A stretch of 64,000 nucleotides of DNA from Candidatus Omnitrophota bacterium (GCA_041650835.1 JBAZKL010000001.1:15449-79448); one strand, 5' to 3'; counted from the stretch's first letter, positions 12,858 through 59,491 are shown. Notes: generated by a model from the sequence alone, not told the origin. Translations and numbers: made by a program.

Positions 12858-13229
12858 CTAGCACATCATACATTCCGCGCAAACATCCTGATCAACTTCA
12901 TGCAACTTACCCTCTAAAGCCAGATTCGCTTCTTTATAATCTTTCAAGCCCCCCTTATAATCCAGAACAGCCTGATACCCCATCAAAAGCAATTTTTCAG
13001 CTGCTTTTGTGCTTGCCGAACAATCAAAGCTGCCGCAATACGTAACTATAGTCTCGGTTTTCTTAAGCAAGCCGGCAGCTTTCAACTCTATGTCATTTAA
13101 GGGTATTGAAAGAGCGCCTTTTATATGCTCATTTTCAAAGCTTTCCCGGGGCAGGACATCAACCAGCTTAAAAGCGACCTTTGAATCCATCATCCTTAGC
13201 AATTCATCCCTCGAAATTTGTCTGACCAT
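12858..13229 (-). CDS. rhodanese-domain sulfurtransferase with C-terminal CxxCxxC tail
   Basis: Rhodanese fold with Cys loop VTYCGSFDCSAST; C-terminus DQDVCAECMMC. Confidence 0.7.
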   Translation of the reverse strand: MVRQISRDELLRMMDSKVAFKLVDVLPRESFENEHIKGALSIPLNDIELKAAGLLKKTETIVTYCGSFDCSASTKAAEKLLLMGYQAVLDYKGGLKDYKEANLALEGKLHEVDQDVCAECMMC

Positions 13230-13281
13230 AGCGGCCTCCTTTCTTTTTCTTATAATTAGATGCCCGAAGAAAAAGAAAGTT

Positions 13282-14085
13282 TCATTTTTCCTTGTCCTTT
13301 GATAAAAACGACTCGATTTTAGTTCGCAGGGCCGCAGGGATATCCCCGCATTCCAGCGCTTTCATGATCGTCAACGACCTGCCGTATTCCTTTAAGAACC
13401 CGGAGCACTCAGGACAATCCCGCGTGTGTTCGTTAAACGACGCGTGACGCTTATCATCAAAGCTGTCTTGCACGAAATCATAGATAAAGCTCATCCAAAT
13501 CCCGCATTGAGGCTTTCCGTTTCCTTTCCCTTGCTTCTGCAGCCGGTCTTCAAAATAGCCGACAATTTCCGATTTAAGCATGGCATATGCGCGGTGCAGC
13601 CGGGTTTTTAAAGAATTAAGCTTGATACCGAGTATTTGCGCGCTTTCCAAAAGCGCTAAACCTTCAACTTTATGCAACAAGAGCGGCATTCGATATTTAA
13701 GCGGAAGCGACCTGACGGCGGCATCTATCCTGGATTTAAGTTCATCATCCAGTAAATGCTTATCGGGCAGCTTAGCCCAATTAACAAATAACCAGGAAGA
13801 ATTTCTCTCGCCTGAGCGCGAAAAGCTGCCCTGCAACTTTAATTGCCGGGATTTCTTTCTCACATACATTAACGATTCATTATACGCGATCTTATAGAGC
13901 CAGGTTGATACCTGGGAGTTACCCCGAAAGCTGTCTATATGCTTCAGTGCCTGGAGATATACGTTTTGCAGGATATCTTCGGCGTCATTGGGGTTACGCG
14001 AAATACTTATCGCAATGGCATAGATCATCCTTTTGTATTTCTTGAATAGGACCTCTATGCTTTCCCGCGGCTGCTGTGTTTCCAT
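13282..14085 (-). CDS. ECF-type RNA polymerase sigma factor fused to a C-terminal ZAS-like zinc-finger anti-sigma domain
   Basis: Sigma70 region 2 (DAEDILQNVYLQALKHIDSF...TWLYKIAYN) and region 4 (LPLKYRMPLLLHKVEGLALLESAQILGIKLNSLKTRLHRA), then ~90-aa extension with HxxxCxxC (FNEHTRDCPECSGF); no TM segment. Confidence 0.7.
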   Translation of the reverse strand: METQQPRESIEVLFKKYKRMIYAIAISISRNPNDAEDILQNVYLQALKHIDSFRGNSQVSTWLYKIAYNESLMYVRKKSRQLKLQGSFSRSGERNSSWLFVNWAKLPDKHLLDDELKSRIDAAVRSLPLKYRMPLLLHKVEGLALLESAQILGIKLNSLKTRLHRAYAMLKSEIVGYFEDRLQKQGKGNGKPQCGIWMSFIYDFVQDSFDDKRHASFNEHTRDCPECSGFLKEYGRSLTIMKALECGDIPAALRTKIESFLSKDKEK

Positions 14086-14784: not shown

Positions 14785-14812
14785 ATTATACCTTAATTTT
14801 AAACATTGTTAA
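14785..14812 (-). promoter_or_regulatory. sigma70-like promoter for the M50 protease / sigma-ZAS operon
   Basis: On minus strand TTAACA-16 nt-TATAAT about 30 nt upstream of the SD/GTG start. Confidence 0.45.
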
Positions 14813-14820
14813 CCAGCTTC

Positions 14821-14963
14821 TTCCCCTTTTTATTGACTTTTTGCTTCTTTTATGCGTTTTCGCATAAAAGAAGCATCCCGAAGTTTGCGCAGAAAATGTT
14901 AGAAAATTAACCCGCTCCCCATTTAACAATTTTCTAACTTTTTCAAGCGCATAAACGAGGGAG
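14821..14963. repeat. Structured intergenic repeat element, copy 1 (two hairpins)
   Basis: Begins TTCCCCTTTTTATTGACTTTT. Perfect 14-bp inverted repeat GCTTCTTTTATGCG-TTTT-CGCATAAAAGAAGC, then second hairpin GCGCAGAAAATGTTAGAAAATT...AATTTTCTAACTTTTTCAAGCGC. ~110 nt are identical to 19264-19372. Confidence 0.7.
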
Positions 14964-14989
14964 TTACCTTAAAGCTTTATTGAGCGTAA

Positions 14990-15430
14990 CCCGGCGCTAT
15001 GAGCACCTTGGCATAAATGATTGCCAAGTGCGCGCCTTCTGCCCAGAAAGGGCGCACCCAGCATTCCTATAAGCTGGGGTGCTGCGGCGTGTTCTGCTTT
15101 CTGCCCAGCAAGGGCGCACCCAGCATTCCTATTAAGCTGGGGTGCTGACTTACACCCCGCGCTAATCGGTATTGCGCGGGTGTGTGTCTTTCTGACTTAC
15201 ACCCGGCGCTATGAGCACCTTGGTATAAATGATTACCAAGTGCGCGCCTTCTGCGCAGGAAGTTGCGCCGGCACCCCGCCTTATTGGACTGGCGGGGTAC
15301 GCCGCCTTCTGCGGCGTGTTCTGCTTTCTGCCTTACACCCGGCGCTATGAGGAAGTTGCGCCGGTGTGCCGCTTTCTGCCTTACACCCGGCGCTATGAGG
15401 AAGTTGCGCCGGTGTTCTGCTTTCTGCAGA
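14990..15430. repeat. Array of REP-like palindromic repeat units (at least three unit families, tandem and interleaved)
   Basis: CCCGGCGCTATGAGCACCTTGGCATAAATGATTGCCAAGTGCGCGCC occurs twice. GCGCACCCAGCATTCCTATTAAGCTGGGGTGCTG occurs twice. The 47-nt unit CTTTCTGCCTTACACCCGGCGCTATGAGGAAGTTGCGCCGGTG occurs twice in tandem. Each unit is a hairpin; unit composition is irregular, so not CRISPR. Confidence 0.7.
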
Positions 15431-15465
15431 AAAAAAAGCCCGGGACACTGTTAAATGTCCCGGGC
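15430..15465 (-). terminator. Rho-independent terminator after cspA
   Basis: GCCCGGGACA-loop-TGTCCCGGGC stem followed on minus strand by U8. Confidence 0.7.
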
Positions 15466-15482
15466 AATATTTTGGATTCAGA

Positions 15483-15683
15483 TTATAATTTGACTACGTT
15501 TGTAGCCTGTTCGCCTTTAGGGCCCTTTTCGATCTGAAACTCGACCTGAGCACCCTCATCTAAAGACTTGTAACCTTCCCCCTGAATTGCGCTGTGATGT
15601 ACGAATACATCGCTGCCATTCTCAGGAGTGATAAATCCATAACCTTTTTGGTTATTGAACCATTTCACTATTCCTTTTGCCAT
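15483..15683 (-). CDS. cspA: cold-shock protein (CspA family)
   Basis: [18 protein letters not shown]...FVHHSAI RNP motifs, 66 aa; ~80-nt AT-rich 5' leader. Confidence 0.9.
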
Positions 15684-15733
15684 TACTTACTACCTCCTTT
15701 CCGTCTAAAATTATAGTAAATAATGACAAGACT

Positions 15734-15769
15734 TAAAAAAAAACGCAAGGTTAGTACTCTAATCCTTGC
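15734..15769 (-). terminator. Rho-independent terminator after CpaF-type ATPase gene
   Basis: CGCAAGG-13 nt loop-CCTTGCG followed on minus strand by U9. Confidence 0.55.
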
Positions 15770-15843
15770 GGCTTAAGACTTCTAATCTGTTATTTACTAC
15801 AAAAGTAAGTATAACACTTATTTCATATTTGTCAATATATATT

Positions 15844-17199
15844 TTAAACAAATTTTTTGTCTTGCGCGTACGGCTTAATTTCCTCGAATGCCTGCCGCGG
15901 GTCTTTAATATACCACTCACAATACTTCGCTACATCTTTTATGCCCCTGATGCCGGCTTTACACAAGCCATCGATAAAACGCCTCCTCATCTCGATCTCT
16001 TCAAGGATCTCTCTGCCGCTTAAACCGCTTGACCTGCTGAGCTTGTCCCGGTAGACGGATGTCGGCGACAACTTCTTAAATCTTTCCGAAGCAATATCAA
16101 AACCCCACAAAGGAGAGATGAGGACCGTCTTCTGCTCCAAACCCGCCGTCTCCGCGATCGCCTCCACCACACGGTGGATCCGGTTATTCACGTTGATCTT
16201 TCTCATCACAACGAAACAATCGAACAAATTCACTAATGTTTCCGAAATATTCATAGGATTGCTTTGCAGCCGAAGGATCGTTTCCCTGACACTGCTGGCA
16301 TGAATAGTTGCCATGCAATATTTACCGATATTCATCGCCGTTGCCAGGTCCTGAGCCTCACTACCTCTGACTTCACCGATAATGATACGATCCGGCCTCA
16401 TGCGCAAACTATTCTTAACCAGGTCCGCCAAAGAAAGATCATCATCGCTTTCAAGGCGTGAAACATTACCGATCCAATCGGTCAAAAGCTCATAGGTATC
16501 TTCTATAACTACGACATGCTGATCAGTCGGGATAAAGCTCAAAAGCGCGTTCAAAAGCGTAGTCTTGCCGCTTCCCGGGCCTCCGGAAATGACCAAATTA
16601 GTCGGATAAACCTTCGCGCCTTCAATGTAAAGCCACAACAAAGCCGCCATCTCCGAAGTTAAGGTCGCTTCTTCGATAAGCTCAACAATACTTAAAGGAT
16701 TGGCCTTGATTATCGTGATCGTCAAATCCGGCCCCCGTGGCGAGTAAACGATATTCACCCTTCCCCGCATCCCGGGCAAATCGACATTGCTGATCTTCTT
16801 CGACATATCATTCCCGGAGTAAATCGCTATTTTCTTGATCAAAAGCTCCAACTCCTGCAGGGTTTCAAAATGGATATCGGTCTCTTTCAGGCCGTCCTTG
16901 GCATGGTGCACATAGACGGGGCCGGTAGCGTTAATAATGATATCTTCGACCTCAGGGTCATCCAGCAAAGGCGTTATGATACCGTAACTTTGCACGCCTG
17001 ACAGCATGTCGACCTTATTCTTCTCATCACGCAAATAACTCAATTTCTCTTCACATTCCTTATCGCCCAGCGCGTTACAAAAATCACAAAAAGCATCCAA
17101 TATGATCTTTTGTTTTTCCGCGGCAGGCTGAGAAAAAGTGATCTTACTTTTTACCTTATTAAGGAACTCCTCTTCTAATTTTATCCTTGCGTCATCCAT
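15844..17199 (-). CDS. CpaF/TadA/VirB11-type secretion ATPase (T2SS-E family), orphan
   Basis: Walker A ISGGPGSGKTTLLNAL, Asp/His boxes, RPDRIIIGEVRGSEA, N-terminal T2SSE-N-like domain; no platform or pilin genes adjacent. Confidence 0.75.
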   Translation of the reverse strand: MDDARIKLEEEFLNKVKSKITFSQPAAEKQKIILDAFCDFCNALGDKECEEKLSYLRDEKNKVDMLSGVQSYGIITPLLDDPEVEDIIINATGPVYVHHAKDGLKETDIHFETLQELELLIKKIAIYSGNDMSKKISNVDLPGMRGRVNIVYSPRGPDLTITIIKANPLSIVELIEEATLTSEMAALLWLYIEGAKVYPTNLVISGGPGSGKTTLLNALLSFIPTDQHVVVIEDTYELLTDWIGNVSRLESDDDLSLADLVKNSLRMRPDRIIIGEVRGSEAQDLATAMNIGKYCMATIHASSVRETILRLQSNPMNISETLVNLFDCFVVMRKINVNNRIHRVVEAIAETAGLEQKTVLISPLWGFDIASERFKKLSPTSVYRDKLSRSSGLSGREILEEIEMRRRFIDGLCKAGIRGIKDVAKYCEWYIKDPRQAFEEIKPYAQDKKFV

Positions 17200-17234
17200 A
17201 TATTCTTCTTTCAGAACGTGATTTCCAAGCTCAC

Positions 17235-17801
17235 TTACGGGCGCTTCCCGGCTGAAAAAGCCTGCGCGAGGAAATCCCCAACGCTATAATACCCGCGGTT
17301 CGCGGGGTTAAAGATCAACGGCTTTATTTTAGAGATGCCGGGAACCCCTTGAGCCTCAAGCATATCTTCATCGACCAAAATATCCTTGATCTCCCCGATA
17401 AATTGCGTATGTAAGCCGATTTTAACCGTATTTATGAGCCGGCATGCCAGATTTAACGGAAATTCCTTAATGTAGGGGGCATCAACAATATCGCTTTTAC
17501 AAGGAGTCAATCCAGCGACGGTGAACTTGTCTTCGCTCTTTCCTGAGGAGACCCCCAAATAATCCACTTCCTTAACATGCTTTTGAGAAGGGATGTTAAC
17601 GGTAAATGCCTTGCGCTCCATGATATTTCCGTAGGTATAGGTGGCTTCCCGCAAAGAAATAGCCACGCACGGCGGACGAGAGCAACAGATACCTCCCCAG
17701 GCAACGGCCATAGCGTTGGGTTTACCGGAGCTATCGTACGTCGAAACAATAAAGACCGGCGTCGGAAAAAGAATAGTTTGAGCCCCTATGGATATCTTCA
17801 C
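17235..17801 (-). CDS. flavin reductase-like (FMN-binding split-barrel) domain protein
   Basis: 188 aa, NAMAVAWGG...FTVNIP pattern of flavin reductase-like domain. Confidence 0.6.
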
Positions 17802-17820
17802 GGCTTCCCCCCTTTATTCA

Positions 17821-18618
17821 TTACTTTGCTCGCTCCTTAGCTTTAGAAAATATCTCCCCTAAGAACGATTTCATCGCTTCCCACGAACGGCTGTCTGCCT
17901 CTTTATTATACGCTGCTCCGGAGGCTGGGTCATTACCTGAACCGGGATTAGTAAAACTATGCACCGCGTTCCCATAAATATTCAGCTGCCAATCTACGCG
18001 GGCAGCGCGCATTTCGTCCTGAAAAGCGCTCAATTGTTCAGGTTTCACGAATGGATCGTCAGCGCCGTGACAGACCAATACGCTCCCTTTAATGTTCCGG
18101 GCATCTTCGGGATGAGGCGTATCAAGATTACCGTGAAAACTCACCGCACCGTCAATAAGAGCTCCGCTGCGCGCCAACTCTAATACCACGCCTCCTCCGA
18201 AACAATACCCGATTGCGGCGATACGGGAGCGGTCCACAAAAGGAAACTTTTTTATCGCTTCAAGGCCGGCGAGAGCGCGCTGGCGCATCAATTCCCGATC
18301 GCTTCTATAAATACCCGCCTGCGCTGAAGCCTCTTTTGGATCTTTAGGCCTGATCCCTTTGCCGTAAATATCCATAGCAAAACCAACATATCCCAGCCCG
18401 GCTATTTGCTCTGCCCGTTCTTTAACATACTGCCCGACCCCCGTCCATTCATGCGCGATCAAAACGCCGGGCAGTTGCCCCTTCAAAGAATCGTCATAAG
18501 CGCAATACCCTTCCAGGACAACATCCCCCTGCTTATATTCGACTACTTGAGTACGTATATCTGCCGACGCAGGGTGCGCCAGCGCGAGCAATACAAGAAT
18601 GGAAAGAAAATATCTCAT
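17821..18618 (-). CDS. secreted dienelactone hydrolase family protein
   Basis: Signal peptide MRYFLSILVLLALAHPASA (start chosen at this Met), nucleophile elbow GYCFGGG, C-terminal HGADDPFV. Confidence 0.65.
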   Translation of the reverse strand: MRYFLSILVLLALAHPASADIRTQVVEYKQGDVVLEGYCAYDDSLKGQLPGVLIAHEWTGVGQYVKERAEQIAGLGYVGFAMDIYGKGIRPKDPKEASAQAGIYRSDRELMRQRALAGLEAIKKFPFVDRSRIAAIGYCFGGGVVLELARSGALIDGAVSFHGNLDTPHPEDARNIKGSVLVCHGADDPFVKPEQLSAFQDEMRAARVDWQLNIYGNAVHSFTNPGSGNDPASGAAYNKEADSRSWEAMKSFLGEIFSKAKERAK

Positions 18619-18661
18619 ATCTGCCTCCTTATCTGTAGACTTTTTGCTGCGGGCGCAACTG

Positions 18662-19078
18662 CTACAAATATTTCTTAATTTCATCCAGGATCTTAGATGA
18701 TGCCTCTTTATCGCCGTCTATCGCTCCGACACGAATATCTATCTTTGAAGAAGCATCTGTTATCCTGCGGATATCGATCCAGACAGTCTTGCCGTCGGTA
18801 TATTTACTGATGATCTGCGCGATATTCTCTTGCCTTGTTTCTTTGGTGACCTCAAGATGCAGCGATTGGAGAGCCGACACGGAAGCTTTAATCGCCTTAT
18901 CGAACGGGGCGTTTACTTCCTGAGACAACTTTTCTGAAAGCCAGACAGCAGTGCCTGCTCCGCCTGCAGCTCCCGCCAATAAAGCGACACAGCCGTACAC
19001 ATTCACTAAAATAAGGAACGCGCACATTGCGACTGCCAATTGGTTAAATATAACCAACTTTGTTGAACTCCTTTTCAT
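18662..19078 (-). CDS. hypothetical small lipoprotein (DUF3568-like)
   Basis: Signal/lipobox ...LILVNVYGC, 138 aa; sigma70-like promoter TTGTAA-16-TATAAT upstream; repeat element copy 2 lies just upstream of that promoter. Confidence 0.45.
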   Translation of the reverse strand: MKRSSTKLVIFNQLAVAMCAFLILVNVYGCVALLAGAAGGAGTAVWLSEKLSQEVNAPFDKAIKASVSALQSLHLEVTKETRQENIAQIISKYTDGKTVWIDIRRITDASSKIDIRVGAIDGDKEASSKILDEIKKYL

Positions 19079-19140
19079 AAATACCTCCTTGTTGATTTTA
19101 TATATTATAATTGAATCCGGTCAATTTACAAATCTTATAA

Positions 19141-19372
19141 TTCCCCTTTTTATTGACTTTTGAACACCAAATGTTTTTATCCAGTGAAACTCAAACAGCT
19201 ACGAGGAAATTATGGAGCGAAGCGGAAGAATTTCCGAAGTGCTTAGCTGTTTGAGTGGGCAGACGTTTTCGCATAAAAGAAGCATCCCGAAGTTTGCGCA
19301 GAAAATGTTAGAAAATTAACCCGCTCCCCATTTAACAATTTTCTAACTTTTTCAAGCGCATAAACGAGGGAG
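19141..19372. repeat. Structured intergenic repeat element, copy 2 (with ~100-nt nested-hairpin insertion)
   Basis: Same TTCCCCTTTTTATTGACTTTT head and identical ~110-nt tail as copy 1. The left arm of hairpin A is replaced by a 102-nt insert carrying 13-bp stem ACTCAAACAGCTA/TAGCTGTTTGAGT enclosing inner stem GGAAATT/AATTTCC. Confidence 0.7.
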
Positions 19373-19492
19373 CCCTTCCTTTTACGCGCCCCTCGCTTCT
19401 GATACTGAGAAACCAGGGAAACTCGAAGTTGTATAGTTGCTTCAAAGTTAAAGCGAAAGGATCAACAGGAAGGCAATAGCTTTTAATCAGGC

Positions 19493-25760: not shown

Positions 25761-28700
25761 TTATGTAGCTAATTTAGAATCAACAAGCACCAACGCTTCT
25801 TTTATTTCCACCGGCAACTCATCGCACGGCTCATTAGCTTCCTGCCACTGGCAGATCTCCACTAATGCTACCACTAAATCATTCAAATAAGTATTAACCT
25901 CTCCTTTTTGCATACACGCGGCCATAAACTCTTTGATCCGCTGGCCGGAAACCACGATACCGCTGTCAGCCATATTCTTGATCTGCATCATTTCATCAGC
26001 AAGATTCATCTTATCCAAAGCCTCCCGGCTTAATACCGGAAGGGCAAAATTCAAACCGTTAAAACTACCCATAGGCTTAATTACCAGCGTCCTGTCAATG
26101 CCGGCGGCAAAATCGATACCACCTTTTTTCCCCGGCGCCTGATCAGGCTTTGCCATAGGCGAGGCGGAAGTTGGCCCTTGATCTATTTGTTCAATCACTG
26201 CACCGTCAGTTCTTGCTTCAGCCTCAAACTGCTCAAGAGACGCCTGCGGGTCAACTCTAAGAAGATCTAACACCTTCCGGCGTTGTTCTTCAGGCAAACG
26301 GCCTAAGAGCGGATACAAAACATTAAACTGTTTATCCGCCATCTGCTTTAACTCATTCTGCAATAGGTCTTTAGCTGCCTGGACCAGATCAGCATCATTG
26401 ATCTTTTGCGCGACTGCCGCGACATAGACATCAATATCTTGAATGCTGGTTTGAGGAACAAGCGCGATTTCTCCACGTATCGCCGCGCGCACCTTACGGG
26501 CCTGCTCCTGAAGAAGGCTTTTTTGCAGTATTACTTGCTTTTCTTCTGCGGAAAGGGCCGGGTTTACCGCGTTCTGATATGCCGTTTCCGCGTTTTTAAG
26601 AAGCTCTTCTTTCTTAGCATCAGGCAAAACTGAATTTGCGATCAAGCCGTCGATCAAGGCTTTGCTCTGCTCAACATCATCGTTTGCCCTACCGCTGCCG
26701 GGAGCATAGCTTAACAATTCATTGAGCCAATCATTGATCTCATTAACTTCCCGCATAGCCCTTATTTGGCGCAGAGCATCCTTAATAACGGTTTTTTCCG
26801 CTGCAGTCAGTGACTCTCCATCTTCGCCGTCTAAAGCTTCCAACGCCAGATCATAGGCAGCCAATATATCTTCCGGCCGCGAAGAGCTGGACATTTCCTG
26901 AGCGAGATCTTTTATTACCTCAGGAGTATTTTCCGGAATAGCGACGTCTCTTAAACCTGTTTCTGTCGCAGGTAAGTTAGACTGAGCAATTCTTGCTTCT
27001 TGCGCTGCGGCTTTTGCCGCCTGTCGCGCTTTAGCTTGTTCAATCGCCGCGAGCGTTGCCGCGCGAATGACCTCCTCTATAGCAGGCCTGCTGGCGATCG
27101 CAGGCCCCTTGTTCCCATGCAAGAGCTGTAAAGCATTCGTCTGCGCCTGCAATATCTGCTCTTGCGTCCTATTCCTGGTAAACATATTATTAACAATTCT
27201 TTTGATCTCTTTATTCGCTTTAAGTTTATTTAATTCCTTCATCCAATTCCGGGGAGTTGAAATTTTTGCGGCATTTTCTTCATCAGCACCCGGCAATTCA
27301 GCCTTGCGCTTCTGGGCGGCCTCATCAATTGCTTTCAATATCGCATCCGCGGCCTCTTGCGTCAACAACCCATCCGCAACATCCCTTTTTAACAACGCTT
27401 CCGCTGAATCCCTGATCTTTGTTACATCCTCAACTGTCCGGGCTTCATTAATTCCTTCTATCATTGTTAAAGCAAGCGCAGGTAATCCTTCTTCCATTAA
27501 CATAGCCTTACGATTCTCTGCAGCCTCATCAATTGCTTTCAATATCGCATCAGCCGCCTCTTGCGTCAGCAACCCGTCAGCCACGTCCCTTTTCAGTAAC
27601 GTTGCCGCGGAATCCCTGATCCTCGCCACATCCTCAATTGTCGGGGCTTCATTAATTCCCTGGATCATCGTTTGCGCAAGAGAAGGTAATCCTTTCTGGA
27701 TGGCCCCCCCCTCATTTTCTTCCTGCTTTTTTTCCTGGTTCCACAATCCAAGGCCTCTCCAAAAATCGGAAACAACGGCAATACCTGCCCGGAGTATAGC
27801 TTTAAAAGGATTGACCGTTACCGTATTATTAGTTACATCACTTACCGTACGCACCGCCTGATAGAAAACTTCTCTCAAAAGCCCTGTCTTCTCACCCGCC
27901 AAAGCCCAAACGCTTGAGCCGCGCCTGGCATGTAAATAAGAGAAAAGCGCGTTGCTCCTGTTCTTAGCCGCTCCTAAACGGGGATCGTTAAGCAAAAGGT
28001 CCAATATCTTTTCGACCTTTTGCGTTTGAGTCAAGCCGTGGTCACGATAAATTCCCAAAACATCCTGCAAAATAAGATTAAAGGTCCTGCCATCAACATT
28101 CAGGTACCCTTTATAGTGCCTGGTAAAATAATTCATGAAGCGCGCCAAAGCCTGCGGATCAGCGGGATTAGTTAAACGCTCTCCAAATATTGATATCAAA
28201 TTCCGCTTTACCGCGGCAGTATTCCATATCGCCTCAAGCAACGACTTTTCCAAATCATTGGTCACGCCATTGACCTTCCTGATGTTATGGGTCAAACAAT
28301 ACTCCCTTACGATATGCCAAACGGTAGGCGGCTTGATCGAGATATTTCCTGTTTGCGCTTCAAAATAAGCCTTAAACTCTGATGCTCGAGCAGGCCCGAG
28401 TAAACGCAGGAGCTCGTCTTTAAATCCCTGGTCCTGCCACAATGCCGCGATAAACTGGTCCTGCCAGCCGCTTACGTTTATTTGGGAAAGCGTGACATCT
28501 CCTATGTATTGCTTCAGCGCGTCGGCTACCGCGTGGTTTGACATGCGGGAAACATCGACTAACTCGACTAATTTTGCCAAATCCATCCCTCCGGCATTAC
28601 CGGAGAAAACATAAGCGACCGTTTCCTGGGTTTGCGCCGCGCTTATTCCCTTACTGGTCAAAAACTGCTCCAATAAGACCTTATTATTCAACGCGGTATA

Positions 28701-31700
28701 ATGCTGCCCCAGCAAAGTGCCAAGGTCAGCGGTTGCGGCCTTAAACTCCAGTTGCGCGAAAGTCGTATCTTCCAAAAATTTCCGAAAAGCATTGGCGATC
28801 CTGACATCAGGACTGTTAATGAATTCCGCTAATTTGCTGGTATTGAGCGTTCCCGGAGTAGGGGCCAATTGGCTGATAAGATTACTTGCGTCAGTTACGC
28901 CGGCATCGCTTAAGGCTCTCGCCAATGTCCCCGAACTGATCTTAGCAAGTATATTCGCCTTTTGCGTTGCCAGAAAATTAAGCAAAGTATCCGTTGTAGA
29001 TGCTCCGGGAGCAGGCACAAACCATGAAAGGCCTGCCAAGAGCGTAGCAGGAATTAACTTCATCGCCAGAGGGATAATGATAAAGCTTGTCAAACCAAAT
29101 ACGATCCCTCCTACCGCTAAAGCAAATACCACCTTCGTCGCGATTTCTTTTGTTTTAACGGAATTATATGCCTTAGTATCTATTACGTCAGCGCGGGTTA
29201 TTTTAACTTGCGCGCGTGCCGCCGCGACCTCGTCGTTTGTCAGGGCAAGGTTTTGCATTACTTTACTAACCGAGCCCCAGAGTTCTTTCCTTAAAATCTC
29301 GTCACTCTTTGTCTCATGAGAAAATTTGAACAAAGTTATAGATTTCTTACTCTGCTGTTCCTGCTCCTGCAGCTCCTGATAATCCAGTATCCTGCCGATC
29401 AATGCCAAAGCCTTACCTTTATCAGTGCCGACAGCCTGTAATTCTTCAATAGTCCTGGCAACATCCAGCTTCCTGGCTAAGGTCGGCTCTAACTTATTAT
29501 CCAAGTACGTGCGCCCTTGTGTTGACCGCCCCAGAAGCCCCATATTATCGCGCAGCTCAGCCTGGATCTTACTTTGATTAACTTCAGTATTAGCGCGCAG
29601 CGCCGTAATGATCAATCCTGCCGCGATCGCCGGAACAGCAACAGGCCAACCTGCTAACCCGAGGCTGACGATTTTAACTATACCGAATATGACTGCCCCG
29701 TAACCTACCATGCTTATGCCGGAGCTGATAATGAACGGAGAGGTCAGCGGCCCGAGGATACGGCTGCGCTGCATTGCGGTAATCACATTATTCCACCAAC
29801 CCGCGATAGCGGGAGTTTTGATCGCGACATCCTCTCCTTCTGACAGATCCACGGAAAGCGCGATATCATTTGTCGTCAAAGCAGCAGTATCTCGATTGCT
29901 CCACTGGACTTTCATGGCGCGCGCCGCCTGCAAAAGATTAGACCCCAGTACGTCACGGTCTTTATTCTTGCCGAAAATATCAAGGAGCCGCTGCGTAAAA
30001 GTAAGATCATCAACCTTATTTTGTATGTACTCGACGAAAAGCTGTTTTATTTCTTCCAGTTGCGTCCCGGTAACCGCAGTTACCGTTGCGGCCTTGCCCG
30101 TTAATTGCCCATAGACATTTTCCTGTATAGTATCGGCAAAAGCAGCGAGCATATCGATAAACTGTTCAGGTGATTCCATATTCCTCAAAAGGCCTACGGC
30201 GACACTGCGGTCTCCCAGCATATTCTCTAATTCCGTGATCAAATCATTCAATTCTTTTCCGGCTGTGTCGCTATTCCAATTGTTGATTATGGATACTAAT
30301 CTTTTTTGATATTCGGCAGCAAATCTTTCCCTCAGGGGCGCCGCCCGAAACCGGGATAACGCCCTTTTCATGAGCTTTGACCAGAAACCGCCTGTCTGCA
30401 AATACGCGTTAAAACGTTCTTCCGCAAATGCTTGAGCGATACTTTTGACTTTGTGGATGCCATTGAGCACGGTAGCTTTTACGGTACTTCCTCCCGGGCC
30501 GTTATTACCATTATCATCTTCTGTCTTTTTAGCCGCTGCTAAAACCTCTTCGTTATGTTTTACAATAACCGGCTCATCGACACCTTTTTGCTTGCTTTCC
30601 ACCAATCCGCTCAAACCATCTCTGGTAGAAGGAGATAACGTAACCCCGAGATTGTCTTCTATCCTTTTTACCACTTCTGCGGCACCAGGCGCCGCTGACT
30701 TCATGAGAGATAAACCTTCAGTGACCTTTTGCTCTACCGGCTGCTCGACGATCTGAGATAATTTATCGACCAAATTCCCGATCTCATTCATCATACCTGT
30801 CGCTAATTCCGCGGGAGCTAATTCTCCTTCGGCAGGCTGATTCGTCGCGTCAATCAACAAGCCCTGTTTATGTATTTCGCTTAAGGTAACTTTGATCTTT
30901 TCTAAGGCTTCCTTTTTCTCTGCCTGGCTCACCCCTGGCTCCATAATTTGCTCAAGCATCTTCTTGATCTCTTGGAGAGGCTTACCGAAGGCTTCAGGAA
31001 AATTCTGAACTTCTTTTTTAGATAAATAACCGGCTATAATTTCCAGAATTTGTTTGACGGTAACGATAAAATCTTCTCCCGCTCGCGGGGCTTCTACGGC
31101 AGGCTGCATATAAGTAGGCATCGCGGCGATAGTGACGCCGGTTGCATCGTCAGTGACATTGACCACATCAAGGACGTCCCGCACCGCGTCATGCGCGAGC
31201 TTTTGCGCTGCTTCCGGAGGGACACCCTGCGTTTGGAGATCCTCGACTAAACCGTCGATCAGATCATAATAATTTATCGCTCCCCGGACAAAACAGAGCT
31301 GCAGCCAAAAAGCTTCCAATTGATCGCCAGGCGCCTGCGCGCGCATAATTCCATCCGCGGAATGGGGGTCCTTAAAAGGATGCTTCAAAAACCCGGTGTT
31401 TTCCGATGTTGAAAGGCTGGGGACCGCGTATTTTGCCGCGTAGCTGTTCTTGATCGCTTCTCTTACCTCCTGCCGCCATTGCTCGATGTTGAGCGCCGGC
31501 AAGATCTGCTGCTTTATGCCTGTTTCCTGCACTAAGCCATGAATTTGGATCTGCGGATTTATCATTTTCGTTACCACTGCCAGAAACGGAGGAAAAGTGC
31601 AATAACCGCTGTCCACGAACATTACTTTTTCTGCGCCTGCTATCCCGAGGGATTTCAACTCTCCCTGAATAAGTTCGATCTTATCCCTGAACTGTTTATC

Positions 31701-33503
31701 ATTGAGCATTTTGTCTTTAATAAACTGTTCGAACTTAAGATAGAACTCTTCGCGGGAGTCGGTCGTATTCGCTATTGACTTGATCGCGTCCCTGATCTCG
31801 CTGTAAAAATCCTTAAAGGTCGCGTTCCTGCCGCTGATATAATACAGGAAAGCGTCAACATCTCCCTCGATAATAAGATTTAAAGTATTATGCGCCGAGG
31901 CAAGTAACCCCGAATCACGGGGGATCCCGACGACCCTAAAGTCGCCATTCTGATAAAAAAACATCTCTTCGCCGTTCCAGGCCGCCATGGCTGATGCGTA
32001 ATGCTGCTGACTGGAGCCGTTAACGATCCTGTTGACCAATTCAGTCACCTGGTTCTCAACGTGCGCTTTTTGCTGAGGGTGTTTGGCGATCAAAATATCC
32101 GCGAGTTCCCTGACCGCTTTCATATGGATATCATTCAATAACCGTTCCCTTTCCGCTAAACTCATACTCCCGTCTTTTACTTTTTCCCTCAAGGCGACCA
32201 TTTCCTTGGCATATCCGGATATGACCTGCCAATAGACCTTCTGCAATTCCTCCTGGGTAATAACCTCATCCTCTTGTTTTATGATTTCCGGCAATTCTAT
32301 CGGGCTTCCCGCTGTTCTTGCGGGTTGAGGATCATCTGCTGCCGGCGGAATTGAGCCGCGCACTTCGTCACCGGGAGTTATTACCGCGGGGCCATTCCCG
32401 CCCATCCACTCCATGGGTACCGTATTCGGAAGATCAACGCGTAAAGGACTGGCTCCCTGAAGCCCGTTTATCGGGACATTTTTCGTGACATCGATGCCTC
32501 CGCTGAAATAGCTGCGGATGACCTGGCCGGTGGGAGTATAAACTGGCTCTTTAATATTATATTCGCCTTCAGAAAAAGATTTTTTGTAGGCATCAAAATA
32601 AGTATTCTTACTCCAACTATCTTTGGAAGTCAAATTACTCAAGTCTTTTTTATCGATTCGCGCGGCATAATTTGAATTCTGGCCGGCAAAGCGGATCTTG
32701 AACCAGCGCGATAACACAAGCGAATAATACACCTGGCGTAACGCGGCGTAGCGCTTGGAAGCATTAACCTCTTTGGTCAATTTCGGGATAATGATCTGAC
32801 GGATAAGCTCTGAGGAATATTCATTCAATACCTTCGCGCGCTCATCCTTAAAATTATACTGCGCGGAATCCTTTAAATAATCCTGCTCCAGCATGACCTT
32901 GAGCGTAGCCTTATAAATATAGGCGCTGTCTTGGGCTTCACGGACAATGATCTCATTCGGAACGATCCAGGGACGGGTCAGGGTAGGAATATTGACATTC
33001 TCCATCCCATAGATCTCAGCGGCTTTCTTATACAATTTATCCCAATACTGCTTACCTTCCTGCGTCTGGGGAGAGGTAAACAGAGCGGTATCTTTCTTAA
33101 GCTGCAGGTCAGCTTCAAGCATGATCTTGCCGACATCGGTATTCTCAAGGTCTTTATCTATGATCTGGTCGGAGGCGTCAGGACGCAAATTGACCCAGAA
33201 AGTGCTGTTCGGAAGGCTTAAGCCTGTCAAAAAATAATCTAAAAGGACTTTAGTCGTATCTTGAAGCTGCCTGCCGGCGGCATCTTTACTATCCCCCTTG
33301 TCTAAAAGGACCCGGATATTGTCGTTTTGCGCGTCATAAGAGAAATACCGCAAGTGCATCGGCCGGTATTTATCGATTACAAGATTAGAATTCATCTTGT
33401 TCAAATAACCGCCGAAATTAAGTTCCGCGGCGACCTGCGCAAAGCCTAATTGCTGAAACAATAAACTAATACTTATAACTAATGACAGAATTCGACGGGC
33501 CAT
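25761..33503 (-). CDS. giant (2,580 aa) secreted/membrane-anchored alpha-helical protein of unknown function
   Basis: Single uninterrupted ORF. N-terminal signal peptide MARRILSLVISISLLFQQLGFAQVAA. Two hydrophobic hairpins mid-protein (FIISSGISMVGYGAVIFGIVKIVSLGLAGWPVAVPAIAAGLIITAL and VVFALAVGGIVFGLTSFIIIPLAMKLIPATLLAGLSWFVPA). Tandem 68-aa repeats. No catalytic motifs recognised. Confidence 0.75.
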   Translation of the reverse strand: MARRILSLVISISLLFQQLGFAQVAAELNFGGYLNKMNSNLVIDKYRPMHLRYFSYDAQNDNIRVLLDKGDSKDAAGRQLQDTTKVLLDYFLTGLSLPNSTFWVNLRPDASDQIIDKDLENTDVGKIMLEADLQLKKDTALFTSPQTQEGKQYWDKLYKKAAEIYGMENVNIPTLTRPWIVPNEIIVREAQDSAYIYKATLKVMLEQDYLKDSAQYNFKDERAKVLNEYSSELIRQIIIPKLTKEVNASKRYAALRQVYYSLVLSRWFKIRFAGQNSNYAARIDKKDLSNLTSKDSWSKNTYFDAYKKSFSEGEYNIKEPVYTPTGQVIRSYFSGGIDVTKNVPINGLQGASPLRVDLPNTVPMEWMGGNGPAVITPGDEVRGSIPPAADDPQPARTAGSPIELPEIIKQEDEVITQEELQKVYWQVISGYAKEMVALREKVKDGSMSLAERERLLNDIHMKAVRELADILIAKHPQQKAHVENQVTELVNRIVNGSSQQHYASAMAAWNGEEMFFYQNGDFRVVGIPRDSGLLASAHNTLNLIIEGDVDAFLYYISGRNATFKDFYSEIRDAIKSIANTTDSREEFYLKFEQFIKDKMLNDKQFRDKIELIQGELKSLGIAGAEKVMFVDSGYCTFPPFLAVVTKMINPQIQIHGLVQETGIKQQILPALNIEQWRQEVREAIKNSYAAKYAVPSLSTSENTGFLKHPFKDPHSADGIMRAQAPGDQLEAFWLQLCFVRGAINYYDLIDGLVEDLQTQGVPPEAAQKLAHDAVRDVLDVVNVTDDATGVTIAAMPTYMQPAVEAPRAGEDFIVTVKQILEIIAGYLSKKEVQNFPEAFGKPLQEIKKMLEQIMEPGVSQAEKKEALEKIKVTLSEIHKQGLLIDATNQPAEGELAPAELATGMMNEIGNLVDKLSQIVEQPVEQKVTEGLSLMKSAAPGAAEVVKRIEDNLGVTLSPSTRDGLSGLVESKQKGVDEPVIVKHNEEVLAAAKKTEDDNGNNGPGGSTVKATVLNGIHKVKSIAQAFAEERFNAYLQTGGFWSKLMKRALSRFRAAPLRERFAAEYQKRLVSIINNWNSDTAGKELNDLITELENMLGDRSVAVGLLRNMESPEQFIDMLAAFADTIQENVYGQLTGKAATVTAVTGTQLEEIKQLFVEYIQNKVDDLTFTQRLLDIFGKNKDRDVLGSNLLQAARAMKVQWSNRDTAALTTNDIALSVDLSEGEDVAIKTPAIAGWWNNVITAMQRSRILGPLTSPFIISSGISMVGYGAVIFGIVKIVSLGLAGWPVAVPAIAAGLIITALRANTEVNQSKIQAELRDNMGLLGRSTQGRTYLDNKLEPTLARKLDVARTIEELQAVGTDKGKALALIGRILDYQELQEQEQQSKKSITLFKFSHETKSDEILRKELWGSVSKVMQNLALTNDEVAAARAQVKITRADVIDTKAYNSVKTKEIATKVVFALAVGGIVFGLTSFIIIPLAMKLIPATLLAGLSWFVPAPGASTTDTLLNFLATQKANILAKISSGTLARALSDAGVTDASNLISQLAPTPGTLNTSKLAEFINSPDVRIANAFRKFLEDTTFAQLEFKAATADLGTLLGQHYTALNNKVLLEQFLTSKGISAAQTQETVAYVFSGNAGGMDLAKLVELVDVSRMSNHAVADALKQYIGDVTLSQINVSGWQDQFIAALWQDQGFKDELLRLLGPARASEFKAYFEAQTGNISIKPPTVWHIVREYCLTHNIRKVNGVTNDLEKSLLEAIWNTAAVKRNLISIFGERLTNPADPQALARFMNYFTRHYKGYLNVDGRTFNLILQDVLGIYRDHGLTQTQKVEKILDLLLNDPRLGAAKNRSNALFSYLHARRGSSVWALAGEKTGLLREVFYQAVRTVSDVTNNTVTVNPFKAILRAGIAVVSDFWRGLGLWNQEKKQEENEGGAIQKGLPSLAQTMIQGINEAPTIEDVARIRDSAATLLKRDVADGLLTQEAADAILKAIDEAAENRKAMLMEEGLPALALTMIEGINEARTVEDVTKIRDSAEALLKRDVADGLLTQEAADAILKAIDEAAQKRKAELPGADEENAAKISTPRNWMKELNKLKANKEIKRIVNNMFTRNRTQEQILQAQTNALQLLHGNKGPAIASRPAIEEVIRAATLAAIEQAKARQAAKAAAQEARIAQSNLPATETGLRDVAIPENTPEVIKDLAQEMSSSSRPEDILAAYDLALEALDGEDGESLTAAEKTVIKDALRQIRAMREVNEINDWLNELLSYAPGSGRANDDVEQSKALIDGLIANSVLPDAKKEELLKNAETAYQNAVNPALSAEEKQVILQKSLLQEQARKVRAAIRGEIALVPQTSIQDIDVYVAAVAQKINDADLVQAAKDLLQNELKQMADKQFNVLYPLLGRLPEEQRRKVLDLLRVDPQASLEQFEAEARTDGAVIEQIDQGPTSASPMAKPDQAPGKKGGIDFAAGIDRTLVIKPMGSFNGLNFALPVLSREALDKMNLADEMMQIKNMADSGIVVSGQRIKEFMAACMQKGEVNTYLNDLVVALVEICQWQEANEPCDELPVEIKEALVLVDSKLAT
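27321..27728. repeat. Tandem 204-nt duplication inside giant gene (encodes 2 x 68-aa repeat)
   Basis: CCTCATCAATTGCTTTCAATATCGCATC... recurs at 27321 and 27525. Encoded repeats begin GLPSLAQTMIQGINEAPTIEDV... and GLPALALTMIEGINEARTVEDV... Confidence 0.8.
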
Positions 33504-58309: not shown

Positions 58310-58420
58310 CTACTTTTTACAGACACATTCGCTTGCTTTTTTCCTGCACCCGCTGCAAACTCCTTTTTCAACGGGTTTTCCACACTTCTTACACGGGGTA
58401 CATCCGCAGGTATCGCACAT
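58310..58420 (-). CDS. unannotated 36-aa cysteine-rich peptide (9 Cys; zinc-ribbon/metallothionein-like)
   Basis: Not in ORF track (<60 aa). GGAGG-5 nt-ATG. Peptide MCDTCGCTPCKKCGKPVEKGVCSGCRKKASECVCKK; CxxC...16...CxxC spacing, Lys-rich. Terminator immediately downstream. Confidence 0.5.
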   Translation of the reverse strand: MCDTCGCTPCKKCGKPVEKGVCSGCRKKASECVCKK

Positions 58421-58968: not shown

Positions 58969-59301
58969 CTATTTTGGCGGGATTACTCCTTTTTTTAATT
59001 TATTAATTCCTTTTACCGCCATAAAGATCGAAAACGCTACGATCAAAAAATCAATTATATTATTAAAGAACTGCCCGTATCTTAAAGTAACAGCCGGCTG
59101 AGTAAACGTCGCTTCTTTAAGTGTTATCACCAAGTTCTTAAAATCAACACCGCCTATTAACATTCCGACAGGCGGCATTATAACATCATTAACCAAAGAA
59201 TTAACGATCTTCCCAAAGGCAGCGCCGACCACAATACCCACTGCCATATCTACGGCATCACCTTTTACGGCAAATTCTTTAAACTCTTTGATGATCGGCA
59301 T
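58969..59301 (-). CDS. mscL: large-conductance mechanosensitive channel
   Basis: [33 protein letters not shown]...[14 protein letters not shown] canonical MscL, 110 aa. Confidence 0.9.
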
Positions 59302-59491
59302 TCCCCCCCTCCCTCAGAGCGCTTCATGCTTTCTCTCTTTGTTAACTTATTATATCTACTTCAAGTAATTTTTACAATGACAGCTTTCGCCTTTTTTCTG
59401 ACTTTTAAACACCAGCTGTTCTTATATATTGAAATTAACGTTATATGAGTATTTGCTGATAGAGTTACGGGGGAATGCTCAGTGAGTATCG

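Follow-up and report, generated by a model that had tools for sequence, protein, structure and literature searches.

Short intergenic repeats that form hairpins are known from several bacterial systems. Palindrome-associated elements of the IS200/IS605 and REP/REPIN-RAYT types are short and non-coding, have stable hairpins near both ends and a fixed strand orientation, and are associated with a Y1/HUH transposase (TnpA or RAYT). IS200/IS605-type transposition leaves no target duplication and targets a tetra- or pentanucleotide, and REPs usually number tens to hundreds of copies. The Correia/NEMIS (Neisseria), RUP, BOX (Streptococcus pneumoniae) and ERIC elements are about 100-150 nt long, intergenic, hairpin-forming and near promoters, differ in presence between relatives and are near-identical within a genome; BOX has a modular mosaic build (boxA-boxB-boxC). 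Here, we report a duplicated unit in a 64,000-nt stretch of a Candidatus Omnitrophota metagenome-assembled genome (MAG), hereafter the window, the larger part of which (M3) is probably a repeat of this already known kind, without sequence relationship to the described families.

Copy 1 of the unit spans approximately 14821-14963 and copy 2 approximately 19141-19372, 4.4 kb apart. The duplication claimed by a first-pass annotation holds: 14855-14963 and 19264-19372 form a 109-nt direct repeat at 100% identity, the heads (14821-14841 and 19141-19161) agree at 21/21 positions, and searches with 36- to 38-nt sub-patterns (≤3 mismatches) found exactly two copies in the 64 kb (0/100 shuffles matched). 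The stretch between head and repeat varies in length: copy 1 has 13 nt there (14842-14854) and copy 2 has 102 nt (19162-19263). What had been taken for a single unit is a composite of two separable parts, a 21-nt head and a 122-nt body (M3), with the following features:

14785-14812, minus strand: sigma-70-type promoter TTAACA-16-TATAAT of the M50/ECF sigma-ZAS operon, outside the repeat
14821-14841, minus strand: head box, copy 1 (gene direction AAAAGTCAATAAAAAGGGGAA), 8 nt upstream of the −35 hexamer of the M50 promoter
14842-14963, plus strand (reading direction only): M3, full form, a 122-nt two-hairpin module (TGCTTCTTTTATGCG ... CGCATAAACGAGGGAG)
14842-14875, no strand: hairpin A, a perfect palindrome with 15-nt arms (14842-14856 and 14861-14875) and a TTTT loop
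14887-14950, no strand: hairpin B, arms GCGCAGAAAATGTTAGAAAATT and AATTTTCTAACTTTTTCAAGCGC, 19-nt loop
14964-14986, no strand: M1' module (TTACCTTAAAGCTTTATTGAGCG), directly after M3; the junction recurs in L067/L068 and L071
14987-15430, no strand: REP/BIME-like array of variable-stem hairpins with GCTTTCTGCC linkers and nested insertions in hairpin loops
19104-19131, minus strand: sigma-70-type promoter TTGTAA-16-TATAAT of the DUF3568 lipoprotein operon
19141-19161, minus strand: head box, copy 2, 9 nt upstream of the −35 hexamer of the DUF3568 lipoprotein promoter
19162-19263, plus strand: 102-nt replacement block, comprising M1' (19162-19186), the M2a hairpin module (19187-19256) and a linker (19257-19263)
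19264-19372, plus strand: M3, truncated form, lacking 13 nt of the head-proximal arm of hairpin A; 100% identical to 14855-14963
59386-59406, minus strand: third head box (AAAAGTCAGAAAAAAGGCGAA), 8 nt upstream of the mscL promoter TTGTAA-17-TATAAT (59349-59377)

An independent Logan assembly from the same organism also contains both head junctions, with contigs that end inside the element, and the element is present as well in independently assembled relatives; the duplicated element is therefore not an assembly artefact. Contigs from independent assemblies break inside M3, which makes such repeats relevant to MAG assembly.

Hairpin A is the perfect inverted repeat with a TTTT loop described in the first-pass annotation, with arms of 15 nt where 14 had been given. 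Hairpin B was likewise recovered with its 19-nt loop (arms 14887-14908 and 14928-14950; 17-nt arms with 94% complementarity as detected by a repeat tool), as were the 13-bp stem (ACTCAAACAGCTA / TAGCTGTTTGAGT) and inner stem of the copy 2 insert. A promoter scan returned both promoters named earlier (11/12 for the M50 and 10/12 for the DUF3568 promoter), and the genes assigned downstream of them were correct (M50 protease, then an ECF sigma with a C-terminal HxxxCxxC domain; DUF3568 lipoprotein). The idea that the element is a target of this adjacent sigma found no support, the nearby promoters being of sigma-70 type. M3 is noncoding; its sole open reading frame, a 47-aa TTG-start frame that enters the promoter, is not conserved. 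Counted from the left, hairpin A starts at nucleotide 1-2 of M3, and hairpin B stops 13 nt short of the opposite end. The left end (CTTCTTTTATGCG) and the reverse complement of the right end (CCTCGTTTATGCG) agree at 11/13 positions, a weak match that is confounded by hairpin A. No T-run follows hairpin A on either strand, and a terminator role for it was rejected.

Compared with the systems above, M3 appears to resemble the IS200/IS605 and REP-RAYT elements in its short, non-coding form, its stable hairpins near both ends, its fixed orientation and the lack of target-site duplication (none in the flanks of copy 1, copy 2, L065 or the two L071 copies). Each full copy lies immediately 3' of one fixed sequence, as in those elements: all five, which may not be independent insertions, directly follow ...ATTGACTTTT. 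M3 also adjoins REP/BIME-like arrays with nested insertions in hairpin loops, as in REP-RAYT systems. It differs from these elements in sequence, having no similarity to any described element, in an apparent target of 9-10 nt, in a copy number that looks low for a REP, and in that neither a Y1/HUH transposase nor any other transposase domain was found in the ten window ORFs checked, both plus-strand genes included. With Correia/NEMIS, RUP, BOX and ERIC it shares size, intergenic position near promoters, hairpins, presence and absence between relatives and near-identical copies per genome, and with BOX the modular mosaic build of its region; unlike them, it lacks a target-site duplication, has only the weak terminal inverted repeat, belongs to a different phylum (Omnitrophota) and is unrelated in sequence, and its effect on expression, if any, is putative.

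Comparison with related loci (L numbers) shows the module boundaries and the presence or absence of M3 at orthologous sites. Full-length homologues were found at L064, L065 and two sites in the sister genome L071. M3 occupies the M50 site of the window, L066, L071 and L067/L068 and is missing there from L005, L006 and L007; it occupies the DUF3568 site of the window and L071/L072, and L005 and L073 lack it at that site. Promoters are kept where M3 is missing (L005/L006 at the M50 site; L073 at the DUF3568 site): the M50 promoter is kept in L005, L007, L067 and L071, with or without M3, and the DUF3568 promoter in L071 and in L073, which has neither head nor M3. In another species, M3 stands beside other genes, encoding a receiver-domain protein (L064) and a secreted protein (L065). 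M3 abuts the head in five copies and is about 100 nt off and truncated in copy 2 and L067/L068; every known copy is placed upstream of a promoter of the head type, always in one orientation. A covariance model found no further M3 copies in 258 kb of related loci, and copy number looks low across the window and the related loci searched (two in 64 kb, four distinct loci over three genomes). The metagenome scan used an exact 22-mer, which misses variants such as L067/L068 (1-nt insertion). Viral contig scans and plasmid and phage BLAST gave no match, and nothing relevant to Omnitrophota repeats came up in the literature searched.

Head and M3 body are separable, because L007, the mscL site and about 20 other loci carry the head without M3. 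L007, L066 and L071 have a head identical to that of copy 1 at the orthologous M50 position, and in L007 a different hairpin module replaces M3; at mscL, an M1'-like stretch follows the head.

Copy 2 is, as judged from the aligned loci, the derived form, in which the 102-nt block replaced 13 nt of hairpin A, because L071 has full M3 beside the head at both sites. The block is absent at the orthologous L071 site, which bears out the earlier proposal that an insertion had replaced the left arm of hairpin A in copy 2. The converse, that copy 1 is derived and its palindrome arose by template switching, was rejected: both L071 sites and L064/L065 carry the palindromic form. L055, L067 and L068 carry copies of M2a with 98-99% identity, and M2a and M2b are both 98-99% identical across species in differing contexts. 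Arrays orthologous to the REP/BIME-like array occur in L005, L006, L067, L068 and L071. REP/MITE-like hairpin modules thus make up the entire intergenic region as a mosaic; the set found in intergenic regions of this clade comprises M1', M2, M3, REP-like units (M4) and M5.

Differences between M3 copies number 0/100 positions within the window, 6/100 within L071, 8-11 per 100 nt between the window and L071, and 2-3 per 100 nt between the window and the copies of the CAZPNW species. Host genes rank the genomes the other way (window versus L071, 92.6% identity, and 82.5% at third codon positions; window versus CAZPNW species, 82.3% and 64%). The alignments thus show M3 similarities that are incongruent with the host genes, because the window M3 is nearer to the distant CAZPNW species than to its sister L071. 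They also show copies grouping by genome, not by site, with six states common within each genome yet differing between the window and L071, a pattern that indicates homogenisation within genomes. In L071, the block shared by the two sites is longer (M5, M1', M3 and head), and the flanking promoter and 5'UTR diverge by 9-10%. Homogenising two copies 4.4 kb apart needs no transposition; local gene conversion suffices. Likewise, the contrast between about 97% M3 identity and about 64% synonymous-site identity (window versus CAZPNW) could be explained by strong selection instead of transfer.

We consider the duplicated unit to be a composite of a promoter-upstream head box and a mobile or recombining repeat, M3, with copy 2 as the derived copy (probability roughly 0.55). 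M3 would land, or be copied, directly beside the head, right after ...ATTGACTTTT; re-copying or gene conversion would keep it uniform per genome, and it appears to move between lineages. Its spread could proceed by strand-specific, hairpin-dependent transposition of the IS200/IS605 or REP-RAYT type, without target duplication, or by ectopic recombination with the head and M1' as homology. In copy 2, a second block (M1' and M2a) would have entered at the same spot, removing 13 nt of hairpin A. Any effect of M3 on neighbouring promoters is putative. Of the functions proposed in the first-pass annotation, a MITE-like mobile repeat fits the 122-nt body best, apart from the absent target-site duplications and low-looking copy number, and an operator or UP-like module suits the 21-nt head and not the body, most head sites being without the 109-nt stretch.

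Several observations speak against reading M3 as a mobile or recombining repeat, namely, its seemingly low copy number, the missing transposase among the ten window ORFs, the weak terminal inverted repeat (11/13), the missing target duplication, and its single orientation, with a head-type promoter always following. Even the L071 copies, diverged elsewhere, keep a 28-nt block and the stem of hairpin A unchanged (the 13-bp stem in every full M3 copy), which would also fit a functional cis element.

That M3 is a functional cis-regulatory DNA module acting with the head, as an auxiliary operator or bent DNA for the regulator of an envelope-related regulon, and is conserved on that account, is possible but unlikely. 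Its placement upstream of head-type promoters in one orientation, the invariant block and stem, and the genes it precedes would all agree with this, the latter looking envelope-related (M50 protease and ECF sigma, DUF3568 lipoprotein, secreted Met/His-rich protein, receiver-domain protein), as would the CAZPNW identity (about 97% versus 64% at synonymous sites). So would a third AAAAG tract, which the head-proximal arm of the full form places in 11-nt phase with the head's two, and a resemblance of the hairpin B arms to the first 13 nt of the head (AAAAGTTAGAAAA versus AAAAGTCAGAAAA). M3 is nonetheless missing at otherwise conserved orthologous promoters (L005, L006, L007 and L073), most head promoters do without it, and its distance from the promoter varies, with a shift of about 100 nt and a truncation in copy 2 and L067/L068; its 8-11% divergence in L071 is about that of the flanking promoter and 5'UTR (9-10%), and grouping by genome is not expected of independently selected operators. 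A passive local duplication, in which a single copying event took one intergenic segment to a promoter region close by, followed by gene conversion between paralogous segments, with M3 neither mobile nor functional, would account for two copies only 4.4 kb apart in 64 kb, for the same two sites in the window and L071 with grouping by genome, and for the longer shared block of L071. We regard it as decidedly unlikely, given that a CAZPNW-like species has M3 at two other, unlinked genes (L064 and L065) and not at the DUF3568 site, that the window M3 is nearer to those copies than to the sister genome's, and that M2a and M2b are also nearly identical across species in differing contexts.

The earlier suggestion of a structured noncoding RNA is not supported, because M3 matches no Rfam family and lacks its own promoter and terminator, compensatory pairs number 0/42, and changes in L071 stems, among them that of hairpin B, break pairs. 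Rfam 15 gave no match in the window at gathering thresholds and, at E ≤ 10, only chance-level, miRNA-like matches on the palindrome; neither strand of M3 has a sigma-70 promoter or intrinsic terminator, and TTGACT in the head has no usable −10 at 16-18 nt. A small RNA gene or element formed by M3 with or without M2, for example, an sRNA divergent from or upstream of the operon promoters, would be consistent with a very stable fold relative to shuffled sequences (copy 1 on the plus strand, −51 kcal/mol, z = −8.6; minus strand, z = −6.4) and with the orientation fixed in all modules. In the M2 hairpins, a double change preserves the pairing (window, ACTCA...TGAGT; L055, ACTCC...GGAGT), and some M2 variants have a C(UUCG)G loop and one a G-U pair, on the gene-sense strand only. 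The perfect 15-bp palindrome is, however, more typical of DNA-level events, and truncated copies persist, which leaves an RNA very improbable. Another reading is rather improbable: a promoter-targeting cassette system, in which hairpin repeats would home to the upstream edge of the box and be copied between promoters by recombination there. Upstream control regions would then be spread or remodelled, for example, by the third in-phase A-tract, rewiring a small envelope-related Omnitrophota regulon; in the strongest form, the box itself would travel with the cassette.

With M3 read as a mobile or recombining repeat, intergenic regions of the uncultivated phylum Omnitrophota are built as mosaics of hairpin modules whose repeats show concerted evolution and apparently cross lineages, a caution for anyone inclined to see regulatory signals in duplicated non-coding sequence. 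The head box may be more useful than the repeat, as a candidate promoter element or operator that can be tested in organisms without genetics.

The head reads AAAAGTCARWAAAAAGGSGAA in the gene direction and lies at about −44 to −64 relative to a sigma-70-type promoter. Its distance to the −35 hexamer is 8-9 nt at the three window promoters and about 20 others elsewhere, and the layout of head, 8 nt, −35, 16-18 nt and −10 occurs without M3 at about 20 loci (Omnitrophota, Elusimicrobia and other MAGs). Promoters scoring at least 8/12 were found at head spacing at 22/59 head sites, versus 2/59 on the other side of the head and 3.2% of random windows. A genome-collection scan with a degenerate head gave many chance matches (terminator stems and an unrelated Bacteroidales repeat). 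The head most likely acts as a UP-like or activator-binding element. It resembles a UP element with phased A-tracts in lying directly upstream of the −35 at fixed spacing, in having two AAAAG tracts 11 nt (one helical turn) apart, and in its occurrence in several phyla, as expected if a conserved part of RNA polymerase reads it. It differs in mismatching the Escherichia coli UP consensus (compared by eye), in having conserved non-A/T positions (GTCA and GGSGAA), and in being discrete, with three exact sites in 64 kb, next-best matches at background (at least 4 mismatches) and no weaker versions; in this it is closer to the binding site of a transcription factor. On the same counts, a diffuse generic UP consensus was rejected for the window. 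Also rejected were attC, dif/Xer, CtsR and CodY sites (wrong half-site order or a missing half, by eye against consensus sequences) and a plus-strand promoter starting from TTGACT in the head, the hexamers 16-18 nt on being TTTATC, CTTATT, AAAGGA or GTTTTC in the different variants, never with A at position 2, and the promoter scan giving none on the plus strand. The box, discrete and 21-28 nt long, often precedes a single-domain response-regulator gene and recurs in several candidate phyla.

The unit repeated in the window consists of a 21-nt box (the head), a middle of variable length (13 nt and 102 nt in copies 1 and 2, respectively) and a 109-nt direct repeat of 100% identity (14855-14963 and 19264-19372). 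Sub-pattern searches with ≤3 mismatches recovered these two copies only in the 64 kb and zero matches in shuffled sequence. Hairpin A of copy 1 is a perfect palindrome with 15-nt arms, and hairpin B (arms, 17 to 22 nt; loop, 19 nt) is present in both copies. The minus strand carries all genes of the region, and both promoters named in the first-pass annotation were recovered by a promoter scan. In a Logan assembly made independently for this organism, contigs break within the element and both head junctions are confirmed. The parts discussed below are as follows.

14821-14841: head of copy 1, upstream of the M50 protease/sigma-ZAS operon; identical to 19141-19161
14842-14963: M3 body of copy 1, full length
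19141-19161: head of copy 2, upstream of the DUF3568 lipoprotein gene
19264-19372: M3 body of copy 2, truncated
59386-59406: third head, 3 substitutions, 8 nt upstream of TTGTAA-17-TATAAT (59349-59377), the promoter of mscL (58969-59301, minus strand)

The head is a box upstream of promoters, spanning roughly -44 to -64 and distinct from the body, because its fixed-spacing layout recurs at promoters that lack the 109-nt sequence. In the gene direction it reads AAAAGTCAATAAAAAGGGGAA (TTCCCCTTTTTATTGACTTTT on the plus strand), ends 8 to 9 nt upstream of the -35 hexamer, and carries two AAAAG tracts 11 nt apart. The motif is discrete within the window: AAAAGTCARWAAAAAGGSGAA has three sites with 0 mismatches, and the next-best sites, with 4 to 5, equal the shuffle background. 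An M1'-like stretch (modules are defined below) follows the third head, which neither the 109-nt body nor M3 adjoins. Scanned for the head motif, a collection with a single genome for each species gave 55 loci, many of them chance matches to terminator stems or to an unrelated repeat of Bacteroidales; about 20 share the order head, 8 nt, -35 hexamer, 16 to 18 nt, -10 hexamer, and none of these has the 109-nt body. Their hosts are Omnitrophota, Elusimicrobia, Schekmanbacteria, unclassified MAGs and a group of "Clostridia" MAGs. Promoters scoring at least 8/12 lay at the head spacing in 22 of 59 head sites, against 2 of 59 on the head's opposite side and 3.2% of random windows. Genes downstream encode eight similar single-domain receiver proteins, as well as lipoproteins, secreted proteins, TusA and DUF1540. 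The head is a candidate UP-like element or a candidate activator site. TTGACT within it was tried as a promoter start and rejected, as no variant has a usable -10 hexamer.

The CheY-like receiver genes (M..KIMIIDDDKEFLEEL...GY.V) preceded by a head (loci L012, L013, L026, L039, L040, L041, L045, and L064) adjoin histidine kinase genes in Elusimicrobia, Omnitrophota and unclassified MAGs, and this suggests cross-phylum conservation of a cis element. Six loci of "Clostridia" and unclassified MAGs (L008, L010, L026, L032, L038, and L049) form a promoter family of one architecture (terminator, GGTGGAA, head, 8 nt, TTGATT, 17 to 18 nt, GATAAT), present in several copies per genome before TusA-like, DUF1540-like and receiver genes. 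The Bacteroidales MAG SKYG01 contributed eight scan matches (L017, L020, L036, L037, L044, L052, L056, and L059) from an unrelated, genome-specific repeat, in which GTCTGAA(A/T)GTCTGAA repeats precede a head-like 21-mer.

Comparison with relatives resolved the intergenic region into modules.

Modules of the intergenic region, read on the plus strand
M1': RARCACC-N10-YTTATYYAGYG, plus a variant
M2: hairpins of ~70 nt, AAACTCC...GGAGT, several subfamilies
M3: 122-nt two-hairpin body, TGCTTC...GAGGGAG; ends, TGCTTCTTTTATGCG ... CGCATAAACGAGGGAG
M4: 14987-15430, REP/BIME-like units with variable stems, GCTTTCTGCC linkers and insertions nested in loops
M5: hairpin module, ~85 nt

The 102-nt block of copy 2 is M1' plus M2a plus a 7-nt linker, and its M2a is 98 to 99% identical to copies at loci of relatives (L055, L067, and L068). 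L071, the sister genome's locus, has the window's gene order (M50 gene, 92.6% identical), and at each of its two sites a full M3 with hairpin A unbroken adjoins the head. For this reason copy 2 of the window is the derived form, in which 13 nt of the head-proximal arm gave way to the block; the intact form at the orthologous L071 site bears out the earlier proposal that an insert had replaced the left arm of hairpin A.

At the M50 site, the promoter TTAACA-16-TATAAT is kept in every relative examined, and what lies upstream varies: neither head nor M3 (L005 and L006), head with a different M2-type hairpin (L007), head, M1', M2a and truncated M3 (L067/L068), or head with full M3 (window, L066, and L071). 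At the DUF3568 site, M3 is present in the window and L071/L072 and absent from L005 and L073, the latter retaining TTGTAA-16-TATAAT. In the more distant CAZPNW-like species, full M3 lies upstream of two other genes, one encoding a receiver-domain protein (L064) and one a secreted protein rich in Met/His (L065). ATTGACTTTT immediately precedes the start of every full M3 copy, and no flanking direct repeats were found at these copies.

The M4 array fills the stretch from M3 to the csp terminator. Its units (CAC(C)-stem-loop-stem-GTG) share a single orientation, some sit inside the loops of others (e.g., 15201-15275), and similar arrays with differing unit numbers occur at L005:9690-9925, L067:30-240 and L071:7570-7810. 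Both sites in L071 carry M5 upstream of M3 (L071:3555-3650 and L071:8020-8105; remnant in the window, ~19385-19440), and the duplicated block there is therefore longer (M5, M1', M3, head). L005 (M50 protein, 89% identical) lacks genes for T2SSE ATPase, dienelactone hydrolase, sigma-ZAS and rhodanese that are present at this locus in the window (15844-18684 and 12858-14085) and in L071; gene content is in flux around these repeat-rich intergenic regions.

Over the 100 nt common to all M3 copies, the two window copies differ at 0 positions, the two L071 sites at 6, window and L071 at 8 to 11, and window and CAZPNW-like copies at 2 to 3. At six positions the two L071 copies agree with each other and the two window copies agree on a different state, whereas the flanking promoters group by site; M3 copies are therefore homogenized within a genome. 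Host genes rank the relatives in the opposite order (L071, 92.6% identical, third positions 82.5%; CAZPNW species, 82.3% and 64%), so M3 has either passed between lineages or been kept under tight constraint in two of them and drifted in L071. Divergence of L071 M3 equals that of its flanking promoter and 5' UTR (9 to 10%). No variation touches a 28-nt block (GCATAAAAGAAGCATCCCGAAGTTTGCG) or the 13-bp hairpin A stem, in contrast to hairpin B and the loops.

On these comparisons, set beside the generally known features of IS200/IS605, REP-RAYT, MITE and UP elements, M3 is probably best read as a non-coding hairpin repeat of the MITE/REP/IS200-IS605-derivative kind, occupying a hot spot where a conserved promoter box has its upstream edge. 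The MITE-like repeat considered in the first-pass annotation is thereby retained for the body, and the association with promoters is explained by the head box and not by M3. Few copies of M3 are known: a search of 258 kb of related loci with its covariance model yielded no more, none matched among viral contigs, plasmids or phages, and the metagenome scan used an exact 22-mer (too strict), with each large DNA collection searched once. This scarcity, the lack of a transposase (none among ten window ORFs examined), the constant orientation and position beside head promoters, and the invariant block leave room for a cis-regulatory role of M3, which we consider doubtful, or for purely local duplication with gene conversion, which we hold to be somewhat less likely still.

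That M3 is a structured RNA, another candidate raised at first, is unlikely. RNAalifold (six sequences) predicted 42 pairs, none with a compensatory change, and the two varying stem positions break pairing in L071. Rfam gave no match at gathering thresholds (chance-level matches only at E ≤ 10), and a scan of both strands found no promoter or terminator inside M3.

Four further features of the window, all on the minus strand, were recorded.

13282-14085: ECF-type sigma factor (Sigma70_r2 and r4_2 domains) whose polypeptide continues into a C-terminal HxxxCxxC (ZAS-like) extension
15435-15791: Rfam cspA thermoregulator match, below threshold (56 bits; gathering score, 78), across csp and its 5' UTR
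25761-33503: gene for a 2580-aa protein, with a 204-nt tandem repeat at 27300-27694 (1.9 copies, 82% matches)
58310-58420: cysteine-rich 36-aa ORF (MCDTCGCTPCKKCGKPVEKGVCSGCRKKASECVCKK) that has a good ribosome-binding site and follows a TPR-like gene
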